Made by a program: the position numbers and the translations under genes
The notes under the pieces: model-generated
Told to the model about the DNA's origin: nothing
Database searches by the model: none
The model's input: the letters and a program-made list of their open reading frames with translations, nothing else
Assembly (NCBI GenBank): GCA_045530865.1
Contig: JAZSCX010000107.1
Location: 1-63,943 of the forward strand
Length of the DNA stretch: 63,943 nt
DNA from: Candidatus Avilachnospira sp.
GTDB taxonomy: Bacteria; Bacillota; Clostridia; Oscillospirales; Oscillospiraceae
Direction of reading: 5' to 3'
In this document: positions 26,296 to 34,614 of the stretch, piece after piece
Layout of the letters: each line of letters opens with the position of its first letter
Position numbering within the stretch: the stretch's first letter is position 1

Positions 26296-26324
26296 TTGAC
26301 TTTAGGACTTAAAAGTGCTAAAGT
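26296..26324 (+). promoter_or_regulatory. promoter of T-box leader 1
   Basis: TTGACT, a 17-nt spacer, then TAAAGT. The architecture is nearly identical to 29979-30007. Confidence 0.55.
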
Positions 26325-26330
26325 AATGGA

Positions 26331-26592
26331 GGATAAAACAACGCGATGATGGAACCAAGTACACATCCATGGGACACCGCAGAGAGCTGCCGGTTGGTGC
26401 AAGGCAGTGGGTCGGGGATGCTGGAATACCTTCCTGAGCGGCATTCCTGAACTGACAGTAGGGAATGACGGGTGCGCCCGATAAAGCGCCGGAGCCTGAT
26501 GGGGCTCGATAAGGCCGCATGATGCGGTAAACTGAGGTGGTACCACGGGAATTTCTCGTCCTCTGCGAAAGCAGAGGACGTTTTCTTTTTTA
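26331..26592 (+). promoter_or_regulatory. T-box riboswitch leader, specifier read as UAC (Tyr)
   Basis: Stem I carries GAUGA, AGUA, AGAGAG and a GGUGCAA distal loop. GAA-UAC-C lies at 26424-26430. The T-box sequence AAACUGAGGUGGUACCACGGG is at 26529-26549. A terminator (26557-26580) is followed by a T-run. Confidence 0.8.
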
Positions 26593-26616
26593 CCCCCAAA
26601 ATGAAGGAGAAACAAT

Positions 26617-28251
26617 ATGGTTATTACGGAATTACTGGAACGAAATGCAAGACTTTACGGCAATGAGGTTGCTCTGGTGGAGATCAACCCCTCTGAGGAG
26701 CGGGACAATGCCGTCACCTGGCGGGATTTCAACCTGATCGAAAACGCCAATCCCGACGCCCCCTACCGCCGTGAAATGAGCTGGAAGGATTTTGACCGCC
26801 GAGCCAACCGGTTTGCCAACCTGCTGCTGAGCCGCGGCCTGAAAAGAGGCACCAAGGTCGCCATTTTGCTGATGAACTGTCTGGAGTGGCTGCCGCTGTA
26901 CTTTGGTATTCTGAAGGCCGGCTGCATTGCGGTTCCCATGAACTTCCGCTATTCCAGCGATGAAATTCAGTACTGTCTGGATTTGGCGGATGTGGATATG
27001 CTGATCTTTGGGCCGGAATTTGTATCCCGGATGGATCTGATTGCCGAAGCGGTCTCCCATGTAAAGATGTTCTATGTGGGCAAGAACGGCCCTGAATATA
27101 CGGAGGACTGCCTGCGGCTCATGAGCTACTGCTCCTCCAGCGCACCTCCCATCATCATGGAGGAAGAGGATCTGGCTGCCATCTATTTCTCCTCCGGCAC
27201 TACCGGCTTCCCTAAGGCCATTCTGCATAATCACCGTGCGTTGATTTCTTCCTGCAAGGTGGAGCAGAACCATCACAGCCAGAGCCGGGAGGATGTGTTC
27301 CTCTGCATCCCGCCCCTGTATCATACCGGCGCCAAGATGCACTGGTTCGGCTCTCTGCTCTCCGCCTCCAAGGCAGTGCTGCTCCGCGGCGTCAAGCCGG
27401 AGTGGATCCTCCGGGCTGTCACCGAAGAAAAGTGCACCATCGTCTGGCTGCTGGTGCCGTGGGCACAGGATATGCTGGATGCCATTGAAGCGGGCAAGAT
27501 CAATCTGGGCGACTACTATCTGGATCAGTGGCGGCTCATGCACATCGGCGCACAGCCGGTGCCGCCCAGCCTGATCAAGCGCTGGAAGAAGATCTTCCCC
27601 AACCATGCCTACGATACCAACTACGGCCTGTCCGAGTCCATCGGCCCCGGCGCGGTCCATCTGGGTGTGGAGAACATCCACAAGGTCGGCGCCATCGGCA
27701 AGGCAGGCTATCTGTGGCAGACCAAGATCATCGATCCCTCCGGCAAAGAGGTGGCGCAGGGCGATGTGGGCGAGCTGGCACTGAAGGGCCCCGGCGTCAT
27801 GCTGGAGTACTACAAGAACAAGGAAGCCACCGACGAAGTCCTCCACGGCGAATGGCTCTACACCGGCGATATGGCACGCGAGGATGAGGACGGCTTCATC
27901 TATCTGGTCGACCGGAAAAAGGATGTGGTCATCTCCGGTGGTGAGAACCTGTATCCCGTTCAGATCGAAGATTTCCTCCGCGGCTTCGAGAAGATCAAGG
28001 ACGTGGCGGTCATCGGCCTGCCCCACCCCCGTCTGGGCGAAATCGCGGCGGCCATCATCGAGATCAAGGAAGGCGTGACCTGCACGGAGGACGAGATCAA
28101 TGCCTTCTGCTCCGGAATGCCCCGCTACAAGCGCCCCAAGAAGATCATCTTCGACAAGGTGCCCAGAAACCCCACCGGAAAGATCGAAAAGCCTGTGCTG
28201 CGTGAAAAGTATTGCAAGGGCCGTCTGGTGGAAGCACAGATCACCGGTTAA
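26617..28251 (+). CDS. AMP-forming acyl-CoA synthetase / class-I adenylate-forming ligase
   Basis: SSGTTGFPKA, YHTGA, GELALKGPGVMLEYY, YTGD and GRKKDVVISGGENLYP are present. RBS AAGGAG. Confidence 0.85.
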   Translation: MVITELLERNARLYGNEVALVEINPSEERDNAVTWRDFNLIENANPDAPYRREMSWKDFDRRANRFANLLLSRGLKRGTKVAILLMNCLEWLPLYFGILKAGCIAVPMNFRYSSDEIQYCLDLADVDMLIFGPEFVSRMDLIAEAVSHVKMFYVGKNGPEYTEDCLRLMSYCSSSAPPIIMEEEDLAAIYFSSGTTGFPKAILHNHRALISSCKVEQNHHSQSREDVFLCIPPLYHTGAKMHWFGSLLSASKAVLLRGVKPEWILRAVTEEKCTIVWLLVPWAQDMLDAIEAGKINLGDYYLDQWRLMHIGAQPVPPSLIKRWKKIFPNHAYDTNYGLSESIGPGAVHLGVENIHKVGAIGKAGYLWQTKIIDPSGKEVAQGDVGELALKGPGVMLEYYKNKEATDEVLHGEWLYTGDMAREDEDGFIYLVDRKKDVVISGGENLYPVQIEDFLRGFEKIKDVAVIGLPHPRLGEIAAAIIEIKEGVTCTEDEINAFCSGMPRYKRPKKIIFDKVPRNPTGKIEKPVLREKYCKGRLVEAQITG

Positions 28252-28274
28252 TATCGTTCAACGTCGTAAGGGCG

Positions 28275-28299
28275 ACCTTACGGTCGCCCAATTCTTATT
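28275..28299. repeat. short GC hairpin (GTAGGGC-family relative) between ligase and symporter genes
   Basis: CGTAAGGGCGACC-TTAC-GGTCGCCC with no T-run. Confidence 0.45.
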
Positions 28300-28359
28300 C
28301 CCGTTTTCAGAAAAAATGTTGGAATTATTCAACGAAAATAAAGAAAGGAAGTACATAGT

Positions 28360-29913
28360 ATGGATATGTTTATCAAAATTGCAATGCTGGTTGTATTCTT
28401 CGGTGTCACAGTCGGCGTAGGGTTGTATTGCCGGAAGCACTCTACGGACGTCAACGGCTTTGTTCTGGGAGGCCGCAGTGTTGGCCCCTGGCTGACCGCA
28501 TTTGCCTATGGCACTTCCTACTTCTCTGCCGTTGTCTTTGTGGGCTATGCAGGTCAGTTCGGCTGGAAATACGGCATTGCCGCCACCTGGGCAGGCATTG
28601 GTAATGCTTTGATCGGTTCCCTGATGGCCTGGAGTATTCTGGGACGCCGCACCCGTGTCATGACCCAGCATCTGGACAGCGCCACCATGCCTCAGTTCTT
28701 TGAGGGCCGCTTCGGCAGCAAGTCTCTGAAGCTGGCAGCTTCTGCCGTTATCTTCATTTTCCTGATCCCCTATACGGCTTCTCTGTACAACGGTTTGAGC
28801 CGCCTGTTCGGTATGGCTTTTGAGATCGATTACTCCGTCTGCGTCATTGCCATGGCAGTTCTGACTGGTATTTATGTCATTGTTGGCGGCTATATGGCTA
28901 CGGCAATCAACGATTTCATTCAGGGCATCATTATGATCGTAGGCATCATTGCCGTCATTGCTGCGGTGCTCAAGAGTCAGGGCGGCTTTCTGGAAGCCTT
29001 GAACGGCCTGTCTCAGGTGTCCGATCCCACTGTCTCCGATGCTCCCGGCGTGTTCAATTCCTTCTTTGGCCCCGATCCGGTCAATCTGTTGGGTGTGGTT
29101 CTGCTGACCTCTCTCGGCACCTGGGGTCTGCCCCAGATGGTGCAGAAGTTCTATGCCATCAAGTCGGAAAAGTCCATCAACAAGGGCATGATTATTTCCA
29201 CCATCTTTGCGGCTCTGGTTGCAGGCGGCTGCTACTTTCTGGGCGGCTTCGGCAGACTGTTCTCTGATAAGATCGATATCGCCGCCAACGGTTATGACTC
29301 TGTGATTCCCACCATGCTCTCCGGTCTGCCCACGGTTCTGATCGCTCTGGTGGTGGTGCTGGTGTTGGCTGCGTCCATGTCCACCCTGTCCTCTCTGGTG
29401 CTGACCTCCAGCTCCACGCTGACGCTGGACTTTATCAAGGGAAGTCTGGTCAAAAACATGAATGAAAAGAAACAGCTTCTGATCATGCGCCTGCTCATCG
29501 TGGTGTTCATTGCCATTTCTGTGGTGCTTGCAATTGTCCAGTACAAATCCAGCGTGACCTTCATCGCACAGCTTATGGGTGTTTCCTGGGGCGCACTGGC
29601 CGGTGCATTTTTGGCTCCCTTCCTCTATGGTCTGTACTGGAAGCGGACAAGCAAGGCATCCGTCTGGGTTTGTTTCGTGTTCTCCACCATTGTCATGCTG
29701 GCCAATGTGGTGGTAAAGTCCCTGTTCCCACCCATTCTCCAGTCTCCCATCAATGCCGGTGCATTCTGCATGCTGGCAGGTCTGGTGATCGTGCCGGTGG
29801 TCAGCCTCTTCACCAAGGCACCTGATAAGAAGCTGGTGGACGATGTGTTCTCCTGCTACGATAAAAAAGTCATGGTTCCCGTCACCGATTCCATCGGAAA
29901 CCACGAGAATTGA
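28360..29913 (+). CDS. sodium:solute symporter (SSS) family transporter
   Basis: 517 aa with about 13 TM segments. The N-terminus ...FVLGGRSVGPWLTAFAYGTSYFSAVVFVGYAG... is typical of PanF/PutP-like SSS proteins. Confidence 0.8.
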   Translation: MDMFIKIAMLVVFFGVTVGVGLYCRKHSTDVNGFVLGGRSVGPWLTAFAYGTSYFSAVVFVGYAGQFGWKYGIAATWAGIGNALIGSLMAWSILGRRTRVMTQHLDSATMPQFFEGRFGSKSLKLAASAVIFIFLIPYTASLYNGLSRLFGMAFEIDYSVCVIAMAVLTGIYVIVGGYMATAINDFIQGIIMIVGIIAVIAAVLKSQGGFLEALNGLSQVSDPTVSDAPGVFNSFFGPDPVNLLGVVLLTSLGTWGLPQMVQKFYAIKSEKSINKGMIISTIFAALVAGGCYFLGGFGRLFSDKIDIAANGYDSVIPTMLSGLPTVLIALVVVLVLAASMSTLSSLVLTSSSTLTLDFIKGSLVKNMNEKKQLLIMRLLIVVFIAISVVLAIVQYKSSVTFIAQLMGVSWGALAGAFLAPFLYGLYWKRTSKASVWVCFVFSTIVMLANVVVKSLFPPILQSPINAGAFCMLAGLVIVPVVSLFTKAPDKKLVDDVFSCYDKKVMVPVTDSIGNHEN

Positions 29914-29978: not shown

Positions 29979-30007
29979 TTGACTTTAACAGTGAAAAGTG
30001 ATAAACT
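29979..30007 (+). promoter_or_regulatory. promoter of T-box leader 2
   Basis: TTGACT, a 17-nt spacer, then TAAACT. Confidence 0.55.
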
Positions 30008-30013
30008 ATCCAA

Positions 30014-30270
30014 GAACAGAAAAACCCGATGATGAAAACCAGTACGCATCGCTTGTTTCCGCAGAGAGCTGCCGGGTGCTGTAAGGCAGTGAAACGGTGG
30101 TGCCGAATTCCTTTCTGAGGGGTCTTCCTGAACCGGGAGTAGGGGAGAACGGGTGCGCCCGATACTGCGCTAAGGATCTGTTAGGATTCGAGAGGCCGCT
30201 TTGCGCGGTAAACTGAGGTGGTACCACGGGAGATTTCTCGTCCTCTGCATGGTTTGCAGAGGGCTTTTTT
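30014..30270 (+). promoter_or_regulatory. T-box riboswitch leader, specifier read as UUC (Phe)
   Basis: It has the same Stem I landmarks as leader 1. GAA-UUC-C lies at 30105-30111. The T-box sequence is at 30210-30230. The terminator is CCTCTGCA-TGGTT-TGCAGAGG followed by T6 (30242-30270). Confidence 0.8.
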
Positions 30271-30311
30271 ATTGATAAGCGAGTGATCTGTACTGGCGCG
30301 GCAGCGCTCAA

Positions 30312-30443
30312 GGCTCCCTTGTGTAAAGGGAGCTGGCAAAATCAGCGCATCAGAGCTGATTTTGACTGAGGGATTGTTTTGTTTACAACCCCTCCGACAA
30401 AAATCAAATGGATTTTTACCACCCCCCCTTGCACAGGGGAGGC
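30312..30443. repeat. composite palindromic REP-like element inside the iorA 5' UTR
   Basis: The left unit begins GGCTCCCTTGTGTAAAGGGAGC and includes an AAATCAGC...GCTGATTT hairpin. The right unit is inverted (...CCCCCCTTGCACAGGGGAGGC). The design matches 4398-4546. Confidence 0.65.
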
Positions 30444-30488
30444 TTTGGTACCTTCAAATCTGTAGAACATTCCAAGGAGGAATTTCAT

Positions 30489-32231
30489 ATGAAAACGTTG
30501 ATGCTCGGCAACGAAGCCGTTGCCAGAGGCCTCTATGAAGCCGGATGCAGCTTTGTATCCAGCTATCCCGGTACGCCCAGTACCGAGATCACCGAAACCA
30601 TCGCCAAGTATTCCGAAGTCTATGCGGAATGGGCCCCCAATGAAAAGGTTGCCATGGAAGCCGCTTTTGGCGCCTGTCTGGCAGGCCGCCGCAGCTTCTG
30701 CGGTATGAAACACGTGGGCCTGAACGTGGCTGCCGATCCGCTGTTCACCATTTCCTACACCGGCGCCAATGCCGGTATGGTCATCGGCGTGGCTGATGAC
30801 GCCGGTATGCACAGCTCCCAGAACGAGCAGGATTCCCGCCACTACGCCAGAGCTGCCAAGATCCCCATGCTGGAGCCTTCCGACTCTGCCGAGGCGCTGG
30901 CCTTTGCCAAGCTGGCTTATGAGATCTCCGAAGAGTTTGATACTCCTGTGCTGCTGAAGATGTGCACCCGCGTGTCCCACTCCCAGAGCGTGGTGGAACC
31001 CGGCGAACGTGTCGAAGTCACCAAAACATACGAAAAGAACCCCCAGAAGTACATCATGATGCCCGGCAATGCCAAGCGCCGCCACCCCATCGTGGAGGAG
31101 CGTACCCGCAAGCTGACCGAATGGGCAGAGACTTCCTCTGTCAACCGTGTGGAGGAGGGCGAGGATCACAAGATCGGCATTATCACATCCTCCACTTCCT
31201 ATCAGTATGTGAAGGAAGTTTGCGGCGACAAATATCCCGTGCTGAAGCTGGGTATGATCTGGCCCATGCCCAAGAAGCTGATCTGTGACTTTGCCAAGTC
31301 CGTCAGTGTGCTGTGCGTGGTGGAAGAGCTGGACGGCTTCATCGAAGATCACTGCCGCAGCATGAGCCTGCCGCTGGTGGGCAAGGATACCTTCCCCTGC
31401 ATCGACGAGTTCAGCCAGAACAAGGTGGCAAAGCTGCTGGGTCTGGAGATTCCGGCCGAAGGCGCCAAGGTTGACGACGTCATTCCTGCCCGTCCTCCTG
31501 TCATGTGTGCCGGCTGCCCCCACAGAGGTCTGTACTACACCCTGGCCAAGAACAAGGTCACGGCACTGGGCGACATCGGCTGCTATACGCTGGGCGCTGT
31601 GCCTCCGCTGGCTGCTCTGGATACCACCATCTGCATGGGCGCATCCATCTCCGGCGCCCACGGCTTTGTCAAGAGCCAGAACGGTGCTGCCGACAACAAG
31701 ACCGTTGCGGTCATCGGTGACAGCACCTTTATGCACTCCGGCGTTACCGGCCTGATCAACATGGCCTACAACGAATCCAACGCCACGGTCATCATCGTGG
31801 ACAACTCCATCACCGGCATGACCGGACACCAGCAGAACCCCACCACCGGCTACAATCTGAAGGGGGATCCCTGTGCCAAGATCGATCTGGAAACCCTCTG
31901 CAAGGCCGTGGGCATTAGGCGGGTACAGGTCGTGGATCCCTACGATCTGAAGCAGTGCGATACGGTTCTGAAGGAAGAACTGGCTGCCAATGAGCCTTCC
32001 GTCATCATTTCCCGCCGCCCCTGCGCATTGCTGAAGTATGTCAAGCACAACAAGCCCCTGACGGTGGATCCTGAAAAGTGCAAGAGCTGCAAGATGTGCA
32101 TGAAGATCGGCTGCCCTGCCATCAGCATGGTGGACGGCGTTGCCAAGGTGGACAACACCCTTTGTACCGGCTGCGGCGTCTGCGCCCAGCTGTGTAAATT
32201 CGACGCCCTGCAGGCGCCCAAGGAGGTCTGA
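30489..32231 (+). CDS. iorA: indolepyruvate:ferredoxin oxidoreductase alpha subunit (TPP- and 2x[4Fe-4S]-binding)
   Basis: MKTLMLGNEAVARGLYEAGCSFVSSYPGTPSTEI is the N-terminus. A GDSTF TPP motif is present, and the C-terminus carries CKSCKMCMKIGCP...CTGCGVCAQLC. RBS AAGGAGG. Confidence 0.88.
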   Translation: MKTLMLGNEAVARGLYEAGCSFVSSYPGTPSTEITETIAKYSEVYAEWAPNEKVAMEAAFGACLAGRRSFCGMKHVGLNVAADPLFTISYTGANAGMVIGVADDAGMHSSQNEQDSRHYARAAKIPMLEPSDSAEALAFAKLAYEISEEFDTPVLLKMCTRVSHSQSVVEPGERVEVTKTYEKNPQKYIMMPGNAKRRHPIVEERTRKLTEWAETSSVNRVEEGEDHKIGIITSSTSYQYVKEVCGDKYPVLKLGMIWPMPKKLICDFAKSVSVLCVVEELDGFIEDHCRSMSLPLVGKDTFPCIDEFSQNKVAKLLGLEIPAEGAKVDDVIPARPPVMCAGCPHRGLYYTLAKNKVTALGDIGCYTLGAVPPLAALDTTICMGASISGAHGFVKSQNGAADNKTVAVIGDSTFMHSGVTGLINMAYNESNATVIIVDNSITGMTGHQQNPTTGYNLKGDPCAKIDLETLCKAVGIRRVQVVDPYDLKQCDTVLKEELAANEPSVIISRRPCALLKYVKHNKPLTVDPEKCKSCKMCMKIGCPAISMVDGVAKVDNTLCTGCGVCAQLCKFDALQAPKEV

Positions 32232-32233
32232 GC

Positions 32234-32806
32234 ATGAAAACGAAGAACATTATGATCGTCGGCGTCGGTGGACAGGGCTCTCTGCTTGCCTCCAAGCTGC
32301 TGGGCCGTCTGCCGCTGACCAAGGGCTATGATATCAAGGTTTCCGAGGTCCACGGCATGAGCCAGCGCGGCGGCAGTGTGGTCACCTACGTCCGTTATGG
32401 CCAAAAAGTCTATTCTCCCATCATCGATAAGGGCGAGGCCGATTTTATCGTGTCCTTTGAACTGCTGGAAGCAGCTCGCTGGACGGAATATCTGAAGGTC
32501 GGCGGTAAGATCGTTGCCAATACTCAGCAGATCAACCCCATGCCCGTCATCATCGGCGCAGCCGAATACCCCGCTGATCTGGCAGGCAAAATGCAGGCTG
32601 CCGGCGTGGATCTGGATGCCTTTGACGCTCTGAAGCTGGCGGAAGAGGCCGGTTCCTCCAAGGCTGTCAACATCGTCCTCATGGGCCGCTTGTCCAAGTA
32701 CTTTGATTTTAGCATGGAAGAGTGGATGGACGCCATTGAAAAGAGCGTCCCTGCCAAGTTCCTGGAACTGAACAAAAAGGCCTTCCAGCTGGGCCGTGAA
32801 GCCTGA
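32234..32806 (+). CDS. iorB: indolepyruvate:ferredoxin oxidoreductase beta subunit
   Basis: IMIVGVGGQGSLLASKLLG...SEVHGMSQRGGSV is the pyruvate/ketoisovalerate oxidoreductase gamma-like domain. It starts 3 nt after iorA. Confidence 0.85.
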   Translation: MKTKNIMIVGVGGQGSLLASKLLGRLPLTKGYDIKVSEVHGMSQRGGSVVTYVRYGQKVYSPIIDKGEADFIVSFELLEAARWTEYLKVGGKIVANTQQINPMPVIIGAAEYPADLAGKMQAAGVDLDAFDALKLAEEAGSSKAVNIVLMGRLSKYFDFSMEEWMDAIEKSVPAKFLELNKKAFQLGREA

Positions 32807-32871
32807 CCCGTTAAACCAAACCCAGCCTCCCTGTAAAGAGAGACTCCGCACACCAAATAGGAGTGAAAAAT

Positions 32872-34170
32872 ATGGCAAACTACTACCAGCCTGAAATTGA
32901 AACCATGCCCCGCGAGCAGCTCGTCGCGCTGCAGAACGAGCGCCTTGTGAAGCAGGTACAGCATGTGTGGGACAACGTGCCCTACTACCGTAAGAAGATG
33001 GAGGAGAAGGGTGTGACCCCCGCCGATATCCAGTCCATCGACGATCTGCACAAACTACCGTTTTTGTCCAAAGCCGATCTGCGGGATGCCTATCCTTATG
33101 GCCTCAAGGGCGTGCCCACCTCCGAATGTGTCCGCATCCATTCCACCTCCGGTACCACCGGCAAGCGGGTGGTTGCATTCTACACCCAGCATGATATCGA
33201 TCTGTGGGAAGACTGCTGTGCCAGAGCCATTGTGGCAGCCGGCGGTACCAAAGAAGATGTGGTACAGGTCTGCTACGGCTACGGCCTGTTCACCGGCGGT
33301 TCCGGTCTCCATGGCGGTTCTCACAAGGTCGGCTGCCTGACCCTGCCCATGTCCTCCGGCAACACGGAGCGGCAGCTGCAGTTCATGACCGATCTGGAAT
33401 CCACCATTCTCTGCTGCACGCCTTCCTATGCCGCCTATCTGGCCGAGTCCATCCACGAGGCTGGTCTTCGGGACAAGATCAAGCTGAAGGCCGGTATTTT
33501 CGGCGCAGAAGCCTGGTCGGAAGAAATGCGCCATGATATCGAGAAGAATCTTGGCATCAAAGCCTATGATATCTACGGTCTGACGGAGACCTCCGGCCCG
33601 GGCGTTGCCTACGAGTGCGAAGAGCAGACCGGTATGCACATCAATGAGGACCACTTCATCGCCGAGATCATCGATCCCGTCACCGAAGAAGTGCTGCCGG
33701 AAGGCTCCAAGGGTGAGCTGGTGTTCACCGCCATCACCAAGGAAGCATTCCCCCTGCTGCGCTACCGTACCCGCGATATCTGCGTACTGACCCGGGAAAA
33801 GTGCTCCTGCGGCAGAACCCATGTGAAGATGTCCAAGCCCATGGGCCGCAGCGACGATATGCTCATTGTCAAGGGCGTCAATGTGTTCCCCTCTCAGATC
33901 GAAGCTGTTCTGCTGGAGCAGGGCTATCAGGCCAACTATCAGATCGTGGTGGATCGTGTCAATCATTCCGATACACTGGAGGTTCTGGTGGAAATGACCG
34001 CCGAAAACTTCTCCGACTCTCTGGCAAAGATCTACGAAATGGAAAAGAAGCTGGTGGATGCCTTGAAGGTTATGCTGGGCATCTATGCCAAGGTTCGTCT
34101 CGTTGCGCCCAAGTCTATCGCCCGCAGCGAAGGCAAGGCTGTACGTATCATTGACAAACGGAAGATCTAA
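32872..34170 (+). CDS. phenylacetate-CoA ligase (PaaK family)
   Basis: YYQPEIETMPREQLVALQNERL...VPYYRKKM...IHSTSGTTGKRVV...YGLTE... is the PaaK-type short adenylate-forming enzyme. Confidence 0.85.
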   Translation: MANYYQPEIETMPREQLVALQNERLVKQVQHVWDNVPYYRKKMEEKGVTPADIQSIDDLHKLPFLSKADLRDAYPYGLKGVPTSECVRIHSTSGTTGKRVVAFYTQHDIDLWEDCCARAIVAAGGTKEDVVQVCYGYGLFTGGSGLHGGSHKVGCLTLPMSSGNTERQLQFMTDLESTILCCTPSYAAYLAESIHEAGLRDKIKLKAGIFGAEAWSEEMRHDIEKNLGIKAYDIYGLTETSGPGVAYECEEQTGMHINEDHFIAEIIDPVTEEVLPEGSKGELVFTAITKEAFPLLRYRTRDICVLTREKCSCGRTHVKMSKPMGRSDDMLIVKGVNVFPSQIEAVLLEQGYQANYQIVVDRVNHSDTLEVLVEMTAENFSDSLAKIYEMEKKLVDALKVMLGIYAKVRLVAPKSIARSEGKAVRIIDKRKI

Positions 34171-34182
34171 GGAGGTAATAAC

Positions 34183-34614
34183 ATGCGTATCCATCAAATC
34201 TCTGTATTTCTGGAAAACCGTGCCGGACAGCTGGCGGAAATCACGAAAATCCTCGCTGATAACGGCATTGACCTCCGGGCCATCTCCATTGCAGAAACTG
34301 CCGATTACGGCGTGCTGCGCATGATTGTGGACAATGCGGAAAAGGCCACCGGCATTCTGCTGACCCATGGCTATATTTTGTCCATGACCCCTGTTCTGGT
34401 GGTTGGCGTGCCGGATCAGCCCGGCGGTCTGGCTCCTGTGCTGGCTGTTCTGGCTGAAGGCAATATTGATATCGAGTATATGTACTCCCTGTTCACCCCG
34501 GAGCAGGGTAAGGCCTACATGGTATTCCGGATCTCCGACGAGGCCAAATTCCTGGAGCTGATGACGGCTCACGGGATGCAGCTGGCGACCGCCGAAGAGC
34601 TGGGTGTAAAATAA
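34183..34614 (+). CDS. tandem ACT-domain protein (small-molecule/amino-acid binding)
   Basis: MRIHQISVFLENRAGQLAEITKILADNGIDLRAISIAE is followed by a second ACT-like half. This is the usual partner downstream of PaaK-type ligases. Confidence 0.75.
   Translation: MRIHQISVFLENRAGQLAEITKILADNGIDLRAISIAETADYGVLRMIVDNAEKATGILLTHGYILSMTPVLVVGVPDQPGGLAPVLAVLAEGNIDIEYMYSLFTPEQGKAYMVFRISDEAKFLELMTAHGMQLATAEELGVK

Follow-up and report, generated by a model that had tools for sequence, protein, structure and literature searches.

A tyrosine-type T-box leader upstream of a predicted aryl-acid CoA ligase and symporter in gut and rumen Clostridia

The stretch of DNA analysed here, contig JAZSCX010000107.1 of Candidatus Avilachnospira sp. 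(63,943 nucleotides (nt) in all, referred to below as the window), encodes a T-box leader, T1, followed by genes for an AMP-forming adenylate/CoA ligase of the ANL superfamily (LIG) and a Na+/solute symporter of the SSS family (SSS). The unit is composed of the following features, with protein lengths in amino acids (aa):

26296..26324, + strand: promoter-like site T1, sigma-70-like (TTGACT, 17 nt, TAAAGT, with TG before the -10 box), from a sequence scan
26337..26592, + strand: T-box leader T1 (Tyr), RF00230 at 125.7 bits and E 1.8e-27, with covariation in the family
26343-26439, + strand: Stem I of T1, with a GA/K-turn (GAUGA...UGAGC) and an S-turn (AGUA/GAA)
26381-26385, + strand: AG bay of T1 (AGAGA), within Stem I
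26427..26429, + strand: specifier codon of T1, UAC (Tyr), followed by C26430, from the Rfam alignment
26534..26563, + strand: antiterminator of T1, bulge UGGUACC, folding at -8.6 kcal/mol
26557..26592, + strand: intrinsic terminator of T1, 10-bp stem, GAAA loop and U-tract, -19.8 kcal/mol, z -6.4
26617..28251, + strand: LIG, AMP-forming adenylate/CoA ligase (ANL superfamily), 544 aa, PF00501 and PF13193
28270..28289, + strand: GC-rich hairpin between LIG and SSS, -17.6 kcal/mol, with a U-poor tail, AAUUCUUAUU
28360..29913, + strand: SSS, SSS-family Na+/solute symporter, 517 aa, PF00474
29925..29958, + strand: strong terminator closing the LIG-SSS unit, -31.3 kcal/mol

An Rfam cmscan of the whole window recovered two T-box leaders above the gathering score and no other RNA family, and no tRNA genes were found in the window. 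The match to T1 (26337-26566, 125.7 bits against a gathering score of 93) spans the RF00230 model from end to end (positions 1-219 of 219). Aligned to that model, its specifier loop reads GAA-UAC-C on the 3' side and then enters the UUCC helix. As is typical of T-box specifier loops, T1 has an AGUA/GAA S-turn and a codon directly ahead of the closing helix. An earlier note, made from the sequence alone, had described a full T-box leader with UAC as specifier at 26427-26429 and had called for an RF00230 search to assign that codon; both the leader and the codon are confirmed at precisely this position, and the codon is an aromatic one. The UGGU of the antiterminator bulge lies at 26538-26541 and its predicted partner is the ACCA-3' end of a tRNA. 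The terminator hairpin proper (26557-26580) consists of CGUCCUCUGC-GAAA-GCAGAGGACG, followed by UUUUCUUUUUU; a CCUC strand is shared by its 5' arm and the 3' strand of the antiterminator, where the two structures overlap. The leader thus has mutually exclusive antiterminator and terminator structures together with the conserved T-box sequence and a UGGN bulge, and of the two folds the antiterminator is the weaker (-8.6 against -19.8 kcal/mol). It shares with canonical RF00230 leaders, for instance that of Bacillus subtilis tyrS, the Stem I K-turn, the specifier loop, the AG bay and distal loop, Stem III, the UGGN-bulge antiterminator with its competing intrinsic terminator, and the use of UAC for tyrosine. 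By this anatomy T1 is a canonical transcription-attenuating T-box riboswitch, predicted to read uncharged tRNA-Tyr.

The protein encoded directly behind T1, proposed as an AMP-forming ligase in the earlier note, is one indeed: its translation contains PF00501 (E 2.8e-70) and PF13193 (E 5.3e-10) as well as the core motifs of the ANL superfamily, catalytic Lys included (SSGTTGFPK, YGLSE, YTGD and PTGKI). Among the 25 NCBIfam models listed, the best 25 of 108 matches, LIG lies below the cut-off in every case; the top one is the long-chain-fatty-acid-CoA ligase subfamily PRK06187 (NF004837), at 393.4 bits against a cut-off of 476. Neither is it a PaaK phenylacetate-CoA ligase as defined by TIGR02155, since it carries PF13193 and not the PaaK-type domain AMP-binding_C_2, PF14535. 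Its best match in the PDB is FadD13 (E 3.5e-66), the 4-coumarate ligases (4CL) follow at about 1e-44, and FadD5, feruloyl-CoA synthetase and MatB are the other solved relatives nearest to it. With all of these LIG shares the two-domain ANL fold and the core motifs; unlike them it forms a cluster of its own, is related to them only distantly, and has about 30 additional N-terminal residues. This additional segment, at residues ~22-52, lies ahead of the Pfam AMP-binding match, which begins at residue 51. A search of 1.84 billion cluster representatives placed LIG in one cluster, the representative of which is 77% identical, while the next full-length clusters are at 40-51% identity. Two sister clusters (46-47% identity) could be placed in their genomes, and their contexts are unrelated to the LIG locus: 1) a PP-binding protein with ABC transporters; 2) a CoA-transferase with an enoyl-CoA hydratase. 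The database names of LIG relatives are generic, and an exact-sequence look-up of the window LIG and SSS proteins returned no record. An assignment of the LIG substrate from homology was accordingly rejected, given that the PDB and NCBIfam families are too distant, the names generic and the sister contexts unrelated.

SSS matches PF00474 (E 5.4e-58) over residues 34-432, placing it in the solute:sodium symporter family (TC 2.A.21), in agreement with the SSS-family transporter that had been proposed for 28360-29913. It stays below the equivalog cut-offs of PutP (198.5/515.5), PanF (158.2/328), ActP (34/1099) and MctC (76/670), and its database names are generic. The hairpin between LIG and SSS had previously been described as a non-terminator; the hairpin is present, but a lenient terminator scan flags 28270-28289 as terminator-like, and it may act in partial termination or in RNA processing.

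Conserved gene-neighborhoods provide the most informative context for these two genes. A scan of one genome per species yielded at least 569 stretches encoding LIG relatives, and the comparative set consists of the best 80 of them, from other species, with LIG orthologues 69-92% identical; the proteins and T-boxes of the window were mapped onto these 80 loci. All 80 come from metagenome-assembled genomes of gut or rumen Clostridia (Avilachnospira, Faecousia, Acutalibacteraceae, Oscillospiraceae and similar). Downstream counts below refer to the 56 loci in which 3.5 kb or more of sequence follow LIG, the upstream count of SSS to 63 loci and the upstream count of T-boxes to 75 loci. The gene for the alpha subunit of indolepyruvate:ferredoxin oxidoreductase (IOR), iorA, lies at operon distance 3' of LIG in 42/56 loci, usually with a PaaK-type ligase gene (paaK) and a gene for an ACT-domain-pair protein (ACT) behind it. 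The commonest layout is a single unit composed of T-box, LIG, (SSS), iorA, iorB, paaK and ACT. An SSS homologue is found directly 3' of LIG in 26/56 loci and directly 5' of it in 5/63; the spacer between LIG and SSS measures 6-82 nt in 28 of 30 orthologous loci, and in some loci SSS is embedded in the order LIG-SSS-iorA, a few nt away from either neighbour. These counts answer the earlier proposal that the ligase/symporter pair is linked to the neighbouring IOR operon, for which a co-occurrence test across genomes had been suggested: synteny backs the link. In a 94% identical relative (L081) the layout is split as in the window, and its Tyr and Phe leaders both pass Rfam. At one locus the SSS of a Tyr-T-box operon looks disrupted (L032:9682-11621), only its first part matching and a gap of about 1 kb preceding iorA.

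Clustering of all neighbouring open reading frames brought out no further recurrent partner family, with the exception of a class I/II aminotransferase. It follows ACT at a distance of 28-34 nt in three operons, each of them led by a UAC leader:

L009:8233-9402: class I/II aminotransferase
L058:15316-16485: class I/II aminotransferase
L045:13823-14992: class I/II aminotransferase

In these three species the aminotransferase would complete a predicted route from arylacetate to amino acid. As the sister clusters of LIG occur in unrelated contexts, the association with IOR is specific to the LIG orthogroup.

A second line of contextual evidence comes from the specifier codons. A T-box precedes LIG in 48/75 loci, of which 31 read UAC and 17 read UUC. 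In an alignment of 34 leaders of this T-box family the specifier column is an invariant U, then A or U, then an invariant C, and the Trp codon UGG occurs in 0/34; GGUGGUACC is invariant in 34/34, and compensatory changes are seen at 22/38 consensus pairs among the 34 family members. The assignment of T1 to tyrosine holds in this wider alignment, where the basal lineages read GAA-UAC-A. The two codons are distributed over the units as follows: 1) all 17 UUC leaders before LIG have iorA in the same unit; 2) leaders controlling LIG alone or LIG-SSS alone are all UAC (among them those of the window, L081, L028, L018, L075 and the distant L057-L073 group); 3) leaders directly before iorA are UUC in 5/5 cases (T2 of the window, L081, L028, L001 and L039). 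In split units, the LIG half is always controlled by Tyr and the IOR-paaK half always by Phe. This pattern ties LIG to tyrosine and IOR-paaK-ACT to phenylalanine, with the leader shared by both halves toggling, on the evidence of the aligned codons, between Tyr and Phe.

In a tree of LIG the basal lineages carry the canonical GAA-UAC-A, and UUC turns up at three or more different points, with some reversions seeming to have occurred. Tyrosine control thus looks ancestral, because the basal lineages read UAC-A. The Tyr/Phe toggle requires a single base change (A/U) in the specifier, and the base of the UGGU bulge that would pair with the discriminator is invariant. Since tRNA-Tyr and tRNA-Phe both have A73, an invariant UGGU suits both tRNAs. 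Next to the specifier, on its 3' side, the window leaders have C, at 26430 and 30111 (UAC-C and UUC-C), as do most aligned leaders. In this the window clade differs from the basal lineages, which have A after the specifier, and from T-boxes in general, which have a purine there, usually A. The leaders of L057 and L059 have a T-box motif and UAC-A, yet score below the Rfam gathering threshold. The layout LIG-(SSS)-iorAB-paaK-ACT is also found without a T-box ahead of LIG at L001-L005, L007, L012, L038, L044, L050 and other loci. Precedents for changes of this kind exist: citing Grundy and co-workers, Wels et al. 2008 note that a single-nucleotide specifier change in tyrS alters amino-acid specificity, and from the Bacillus cereus group they report a T-box duplication with a shift from Tyr to Phe.

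In the window the IOR half of the system forms a separate unit, immediately downstream of the LIG-SSS terminator and behind the second T-box leader, T2:

29979..30007, + strand: promoter-like site T2 (TTGACT, 17 nt, TAAACT), from a sequence scan
30020..30274, + strand: T-box leader T2 (Phe), RF00230 match 30020-30248, 126.4 bits, full model
30108-30110, + strand: specifier of T2, UUC (Phe), in the context GAA-UUC-C, from the Rfam alignment
30240-30264, + strand: terminator of T2 with U-tract, from a fold scan
30489..32231, + strand: iorA, IOR alpha subunit, TIGR03336 at 708.8 bits against 650.9
32234..32806, + strand: iorB, IOR beta subunit, NF005325 at 277.4 bits against 230
32863..34170, + strand: PaaK-family phenylacetate-CoA ligase homologue, TIGR02155 at 508.9 bits, below the cut-off of 646.3
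34183..34614, + strand: ACT-domain-pair protein, PF19571 and PF01842

Both IOR subunits score above their equivalog cut-offs, which identifies the enzyme as an IOR. The likely start of iorA is the ATG at 30489 behind AAGGAGG rather than the start of the longest open reading frame at 30408, which probably overcalls the gene by 27 codons. The PaaK-type protein matches the PDB entries 2y4o, 2y27 and 4r1l at around E 1e-120, and the ACT-pair protein is a probable regulatory subunit that binds an amino acid. Between the T2 terminator and the likely start of iorA lie about 215 nt that are not translated (30265-30488), with a short inverted repeat (CTCCCTT...AAGGGAG) inside. The promoter-like sites of T1 and T2 are near-identical (TTGACT, 17 nt, TAAAGT or TAAACT, TG-extended), and a TTGACTT -35 box is also seen upstream of many orthologous leaders in the leader alignment. 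The two leaders themselves are 74% identical, a value that does not exceed the identity of each to leaders from other species, and a recent duplication of one into the other was rejected on this ground. The genes examined on the flanks of both units are unrelated to them (malQ, an Fe-alcohol dehydrogenase, an M20 peptidase, DUF5058, an acyltransferase and a Mn catalase).

Together, the conserved synteny and the division of the specifiers between Tyr and Phe suggest that LIG fits the tyrosine branch of an arylacetate salvage system. We propose, with a probability of roughly 0.6, that the T1 unit serves a tyrosine-starvation-induced import of 4-hydroxyphenylacetate and its activation to the CoA thioester, followed by reductive carboxylation through IOR and transamination to tyrosine. 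Under this proposal, when tyrosine is scarce, uncharged tRNA-Tyr would pair through its anticodon with the UAC specifier and through its ACCA-3' end with the UGGU bulge, stabilizing the weak antiterminator against the stronger terminator, so that transcription from the promoter at 26296 would proceed into LIG and SSS. SSS would then import an aromatic carboxylic acid of the gut or rumen, most likely 4-hydroxyphenylacetate, and LIG would convert it with ATP to 4-hydroxyphenylacetyl-CoA. IorAB, using reduced ferredoxin, would carboxylate this thioester reductively to 4-hydroxyphenylpyruvate, from which an aminotransferase would form tyrosine. The Phe unit (iorAB, paaK and ACT) may run a parallel route, in which the PaaK-type ligase would feed phenylacetate toward phenylalanine. 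LIG can accordingly be viewed as a distinct ANL orthogroup with a predicted 4-hydroxyphenylacetate-CoA ligase function, and SSS as the permease predicted to bring in the LIG substrate, an aryl acid, both predictions being drawn from gene context.

Several considerations favor 4-hydroxyphenylacetate in particular. Among the plausible acid precursors of tyrosine only an arylacetate needs CoA activation for the adjacent IOR, and a second ligase beside PaaK makes sense if the PaaK-type enzyme rejects the hydroxylated acid. The proposal as a whole also agrees with the abundance of arylacetates in gut and rumen habitats and with the acceptance of all three arylpyruvates by IOR. The combination of a permease with an AMP-forming ligase is, furthermore, a classic layout for scavenging carboxylates, as in acs-actP of E. 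coli or the phenylacetate permease with PaaK in Pseudomonas, where an SSS-family permease is co-transcribed with a ligase that traps the incoming acid in the form of its CoA ester. LIG-SSS differs from such pairs in being preceded by a tRNA-sensing riboswitch, in having a FadD/4CL-type ligase and not Acs or PaaK, in having a permease closer to PutP and PanF than to ActP, and in that its product is predicted to enter amino-acid synthesis and not catabolism. The chemistry has a known counterpart: biochemical work dating back to the 1960s established that rumen anaerobes turn phenylacetate and related aryl acids into aromatic amino acids. In that decade Allison reportedly described a synthesis of this kind, dependent on IOR, in rumen bacteria, and Porat and colleagues reportedly found an aryl-acid route to these amino acids in Methanococcus maripaludis in 2004. 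The predicted steps at the LIG-IOR locus, from arylacetate through arylacetyl-CoA and, via IOR, arylpyruvate to the amino acid, are the same as in those organisms. What distinguishes the locus is that ligases, transporter and sometimes an aminotransferase are encoded with IOR, and that Tyr- and Phe-specific T-boxes give the branches a genetic assignment.

There are also observations that weigh against this proposal. In the window IOR stands under the Phe leader and is cut off from LIG-SSS by a strong terminator, with the consequence that tyrosine starvation alone would leave the route dependent on basal IOR or on an IOR from another locus. LIG has no T-box motif in front of it in 27/75 loci, several of the closest relatives of the window being among them, and in the 18 of these 27 that were scanned with Rfam neither a T-box nor any other cis-regulatory RNA was found, only tRNA genes. 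LIG is under Phe control in 17 fused operons and may, on that count, be not strictly tyrosine-specific. In eight distant loci (L056, L057, L059, L061, L062, L070, L071 and L073) LIG is directly followed by a gene for a P-loop protein resembling uridine kinase and phosphoribulokinase (e.g. L059:3458-4537), and no IOR is nearby; a Tyr T-box precedes LIG in seven of the eight, L056 having no T-box motif. In five of the eight the P-loop protein has an additional N-terminal domain of about 180 residues without a Pfam match, and the gene has no homologue in the window. The top score of SSS belongs to PutP, an amino-acid carrier, and the nearest solved relatives of LIG are fatty-acyl, feruloyl and malonyl-CoA ligases, which are too distant to indicate specificity. 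The activity of LIG and SSS on 4-hydroxyphenylacetate is, in sum, a prediction made from their gene context.

Some of these points could be accommodated if LIG were a broad ligase or one for another aryl acid (phenylacetate, indoleacetate, 3-(4-hydroxyphenyl)propionate, p-coumarate or 4-hydroxybenzoate), and the Tyr specifier reflected a general aromatic amino-acid economy. The Phe codon in 17 of 48 orthologous leaders, the presence of feruloyl-CoA synthetase and 4-coumarate ligases among the best PDB matches, and the stand-alone LIG-kinase units without a nearby IOR are all in keeping with such an enzyme. We nevertheless regard it as unlikely: a PaaK-type ligase is already there for phenylacetate, the Trp codon UGG is absent from the 34 aligned leaders, each split unit gives LIG to Tyr and paaK-IOR to Phe, and among the CoA esters that these acids would yield the adjacent IOR accepts an arylacetyl-CoA alone. 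Rather improbable, too, is that SSS imports tyrosine itself while LIG has a separate role. The similarity of SSS to the proline carrier PutP (198.5 bits, its top NCBIfam score) would agree with this, as would the fact that T-box-controlled transporters usually carry the cognate amino acid, those in Wels et al. 2008 being amino-acid carriers. However, SSS falls below the cut-offs not only of PanF, ActP and MctC but of PutP as well, its family is absent from the T-box transporters of Wels et al. 2008, where those for Tyr are NhaC and NSS, and nine fused operons containing SSS are under Phe control. Moreover, SSS is tied to LIG in two gene orders or embedded as LIG-SSS-iorA, a pattern expected of a permease that supplies a substrate, and direct import of tyrosine is hence less likely than import of an aryl acid.

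A catabolic cluster, in which tyrosine would pass through 4-hydroxyphenylpyruvate and 4-hydroxyphenylacetyl-CoA to 4-hydroxyphenylacetate, recommends itself mainly because IOR is best known as a catabolic enzyme. We consider it very improbable, given that a T-box turns genes on when its amino acid is lacking and would not induce degradation of that amino acid, that AMP-forming ligases drive thioester formation and not energy-conserving hydrolysis, and that the importer and aminotransferase in these operons fit synthesis. It is hardly credible, finally, that T1 is a decayed or chance element without a regulatory role. Although the loci lacking a T-box motif before LIG (27/75), with none recovered in the 18 scanned, might be taken to point that way, T1 matches the full-length model at E 1.8e-27 with an intact terminator/antiterminator switch, and its relatives in other species covary in a compensatory manner and keep the T-box sequence unchanged.

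While the riboswitch mechanism is canonical, its cargo is not, being an ANL ligase and an SSS symporter in place of a synthetase, a shikimate gene or a known amino-acid carrier. The earlier note had remarked that an acyl-CoA-type ligase is an odd member of a T-box regulon, and this cargo is unusual when set against the catalogue of Wels et al. 2008, in which the T-box-controlled transporter families are ABC, APC, DAACS, LIVCS, MFS, NhaC and NSS, with SSS not among them, and in the main text of which indolepyruvate, phenylacetate and acyl-CoA do not occur. Judged against that catalogue and general knowledge, and not against current literature, the ligase and SSS cargo is new to the T-box regulon.

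The LIG loci, at least 569 candidate stretches in public genomes, present a candidate ligase, a candidate transporter and in some species a candidate aminotransferase for this step, and the riboswitch specifier acts as a built-in label of the amino acid that each gene serves. To our knowledge, which extends to the same catalogue and general background, no bacterial genes have been assigned to the activation of the tyrosine precursor. We tentatively suggest, at somewhat short of even odds, that LIG represents a new family of 4-hydroxyphenylacetate-CoA ligases, which together with the SSS aryl-acid importer, IOR, the PaaK-type ligase and ACT would allow many uncultured Oscillospiraceae-type Clostridia of the gut and rumen to build tyrosine and phenylalanine from the fermentation products of other microbes, the T-box having repeatedly switched between the Tyr and Phe tRNAs through one A/U exchange in its specifier. 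If this is true, the label "acyl-CoA ligase", which is very common in gut metagenomes, could be put right for these proteins, and a single orthologous T-box would supply a natural series of specifiers switched from Tyr to Phe. Cross-feeding on arylacetates, which are also host-relevant metabolites, would likewise become testable.

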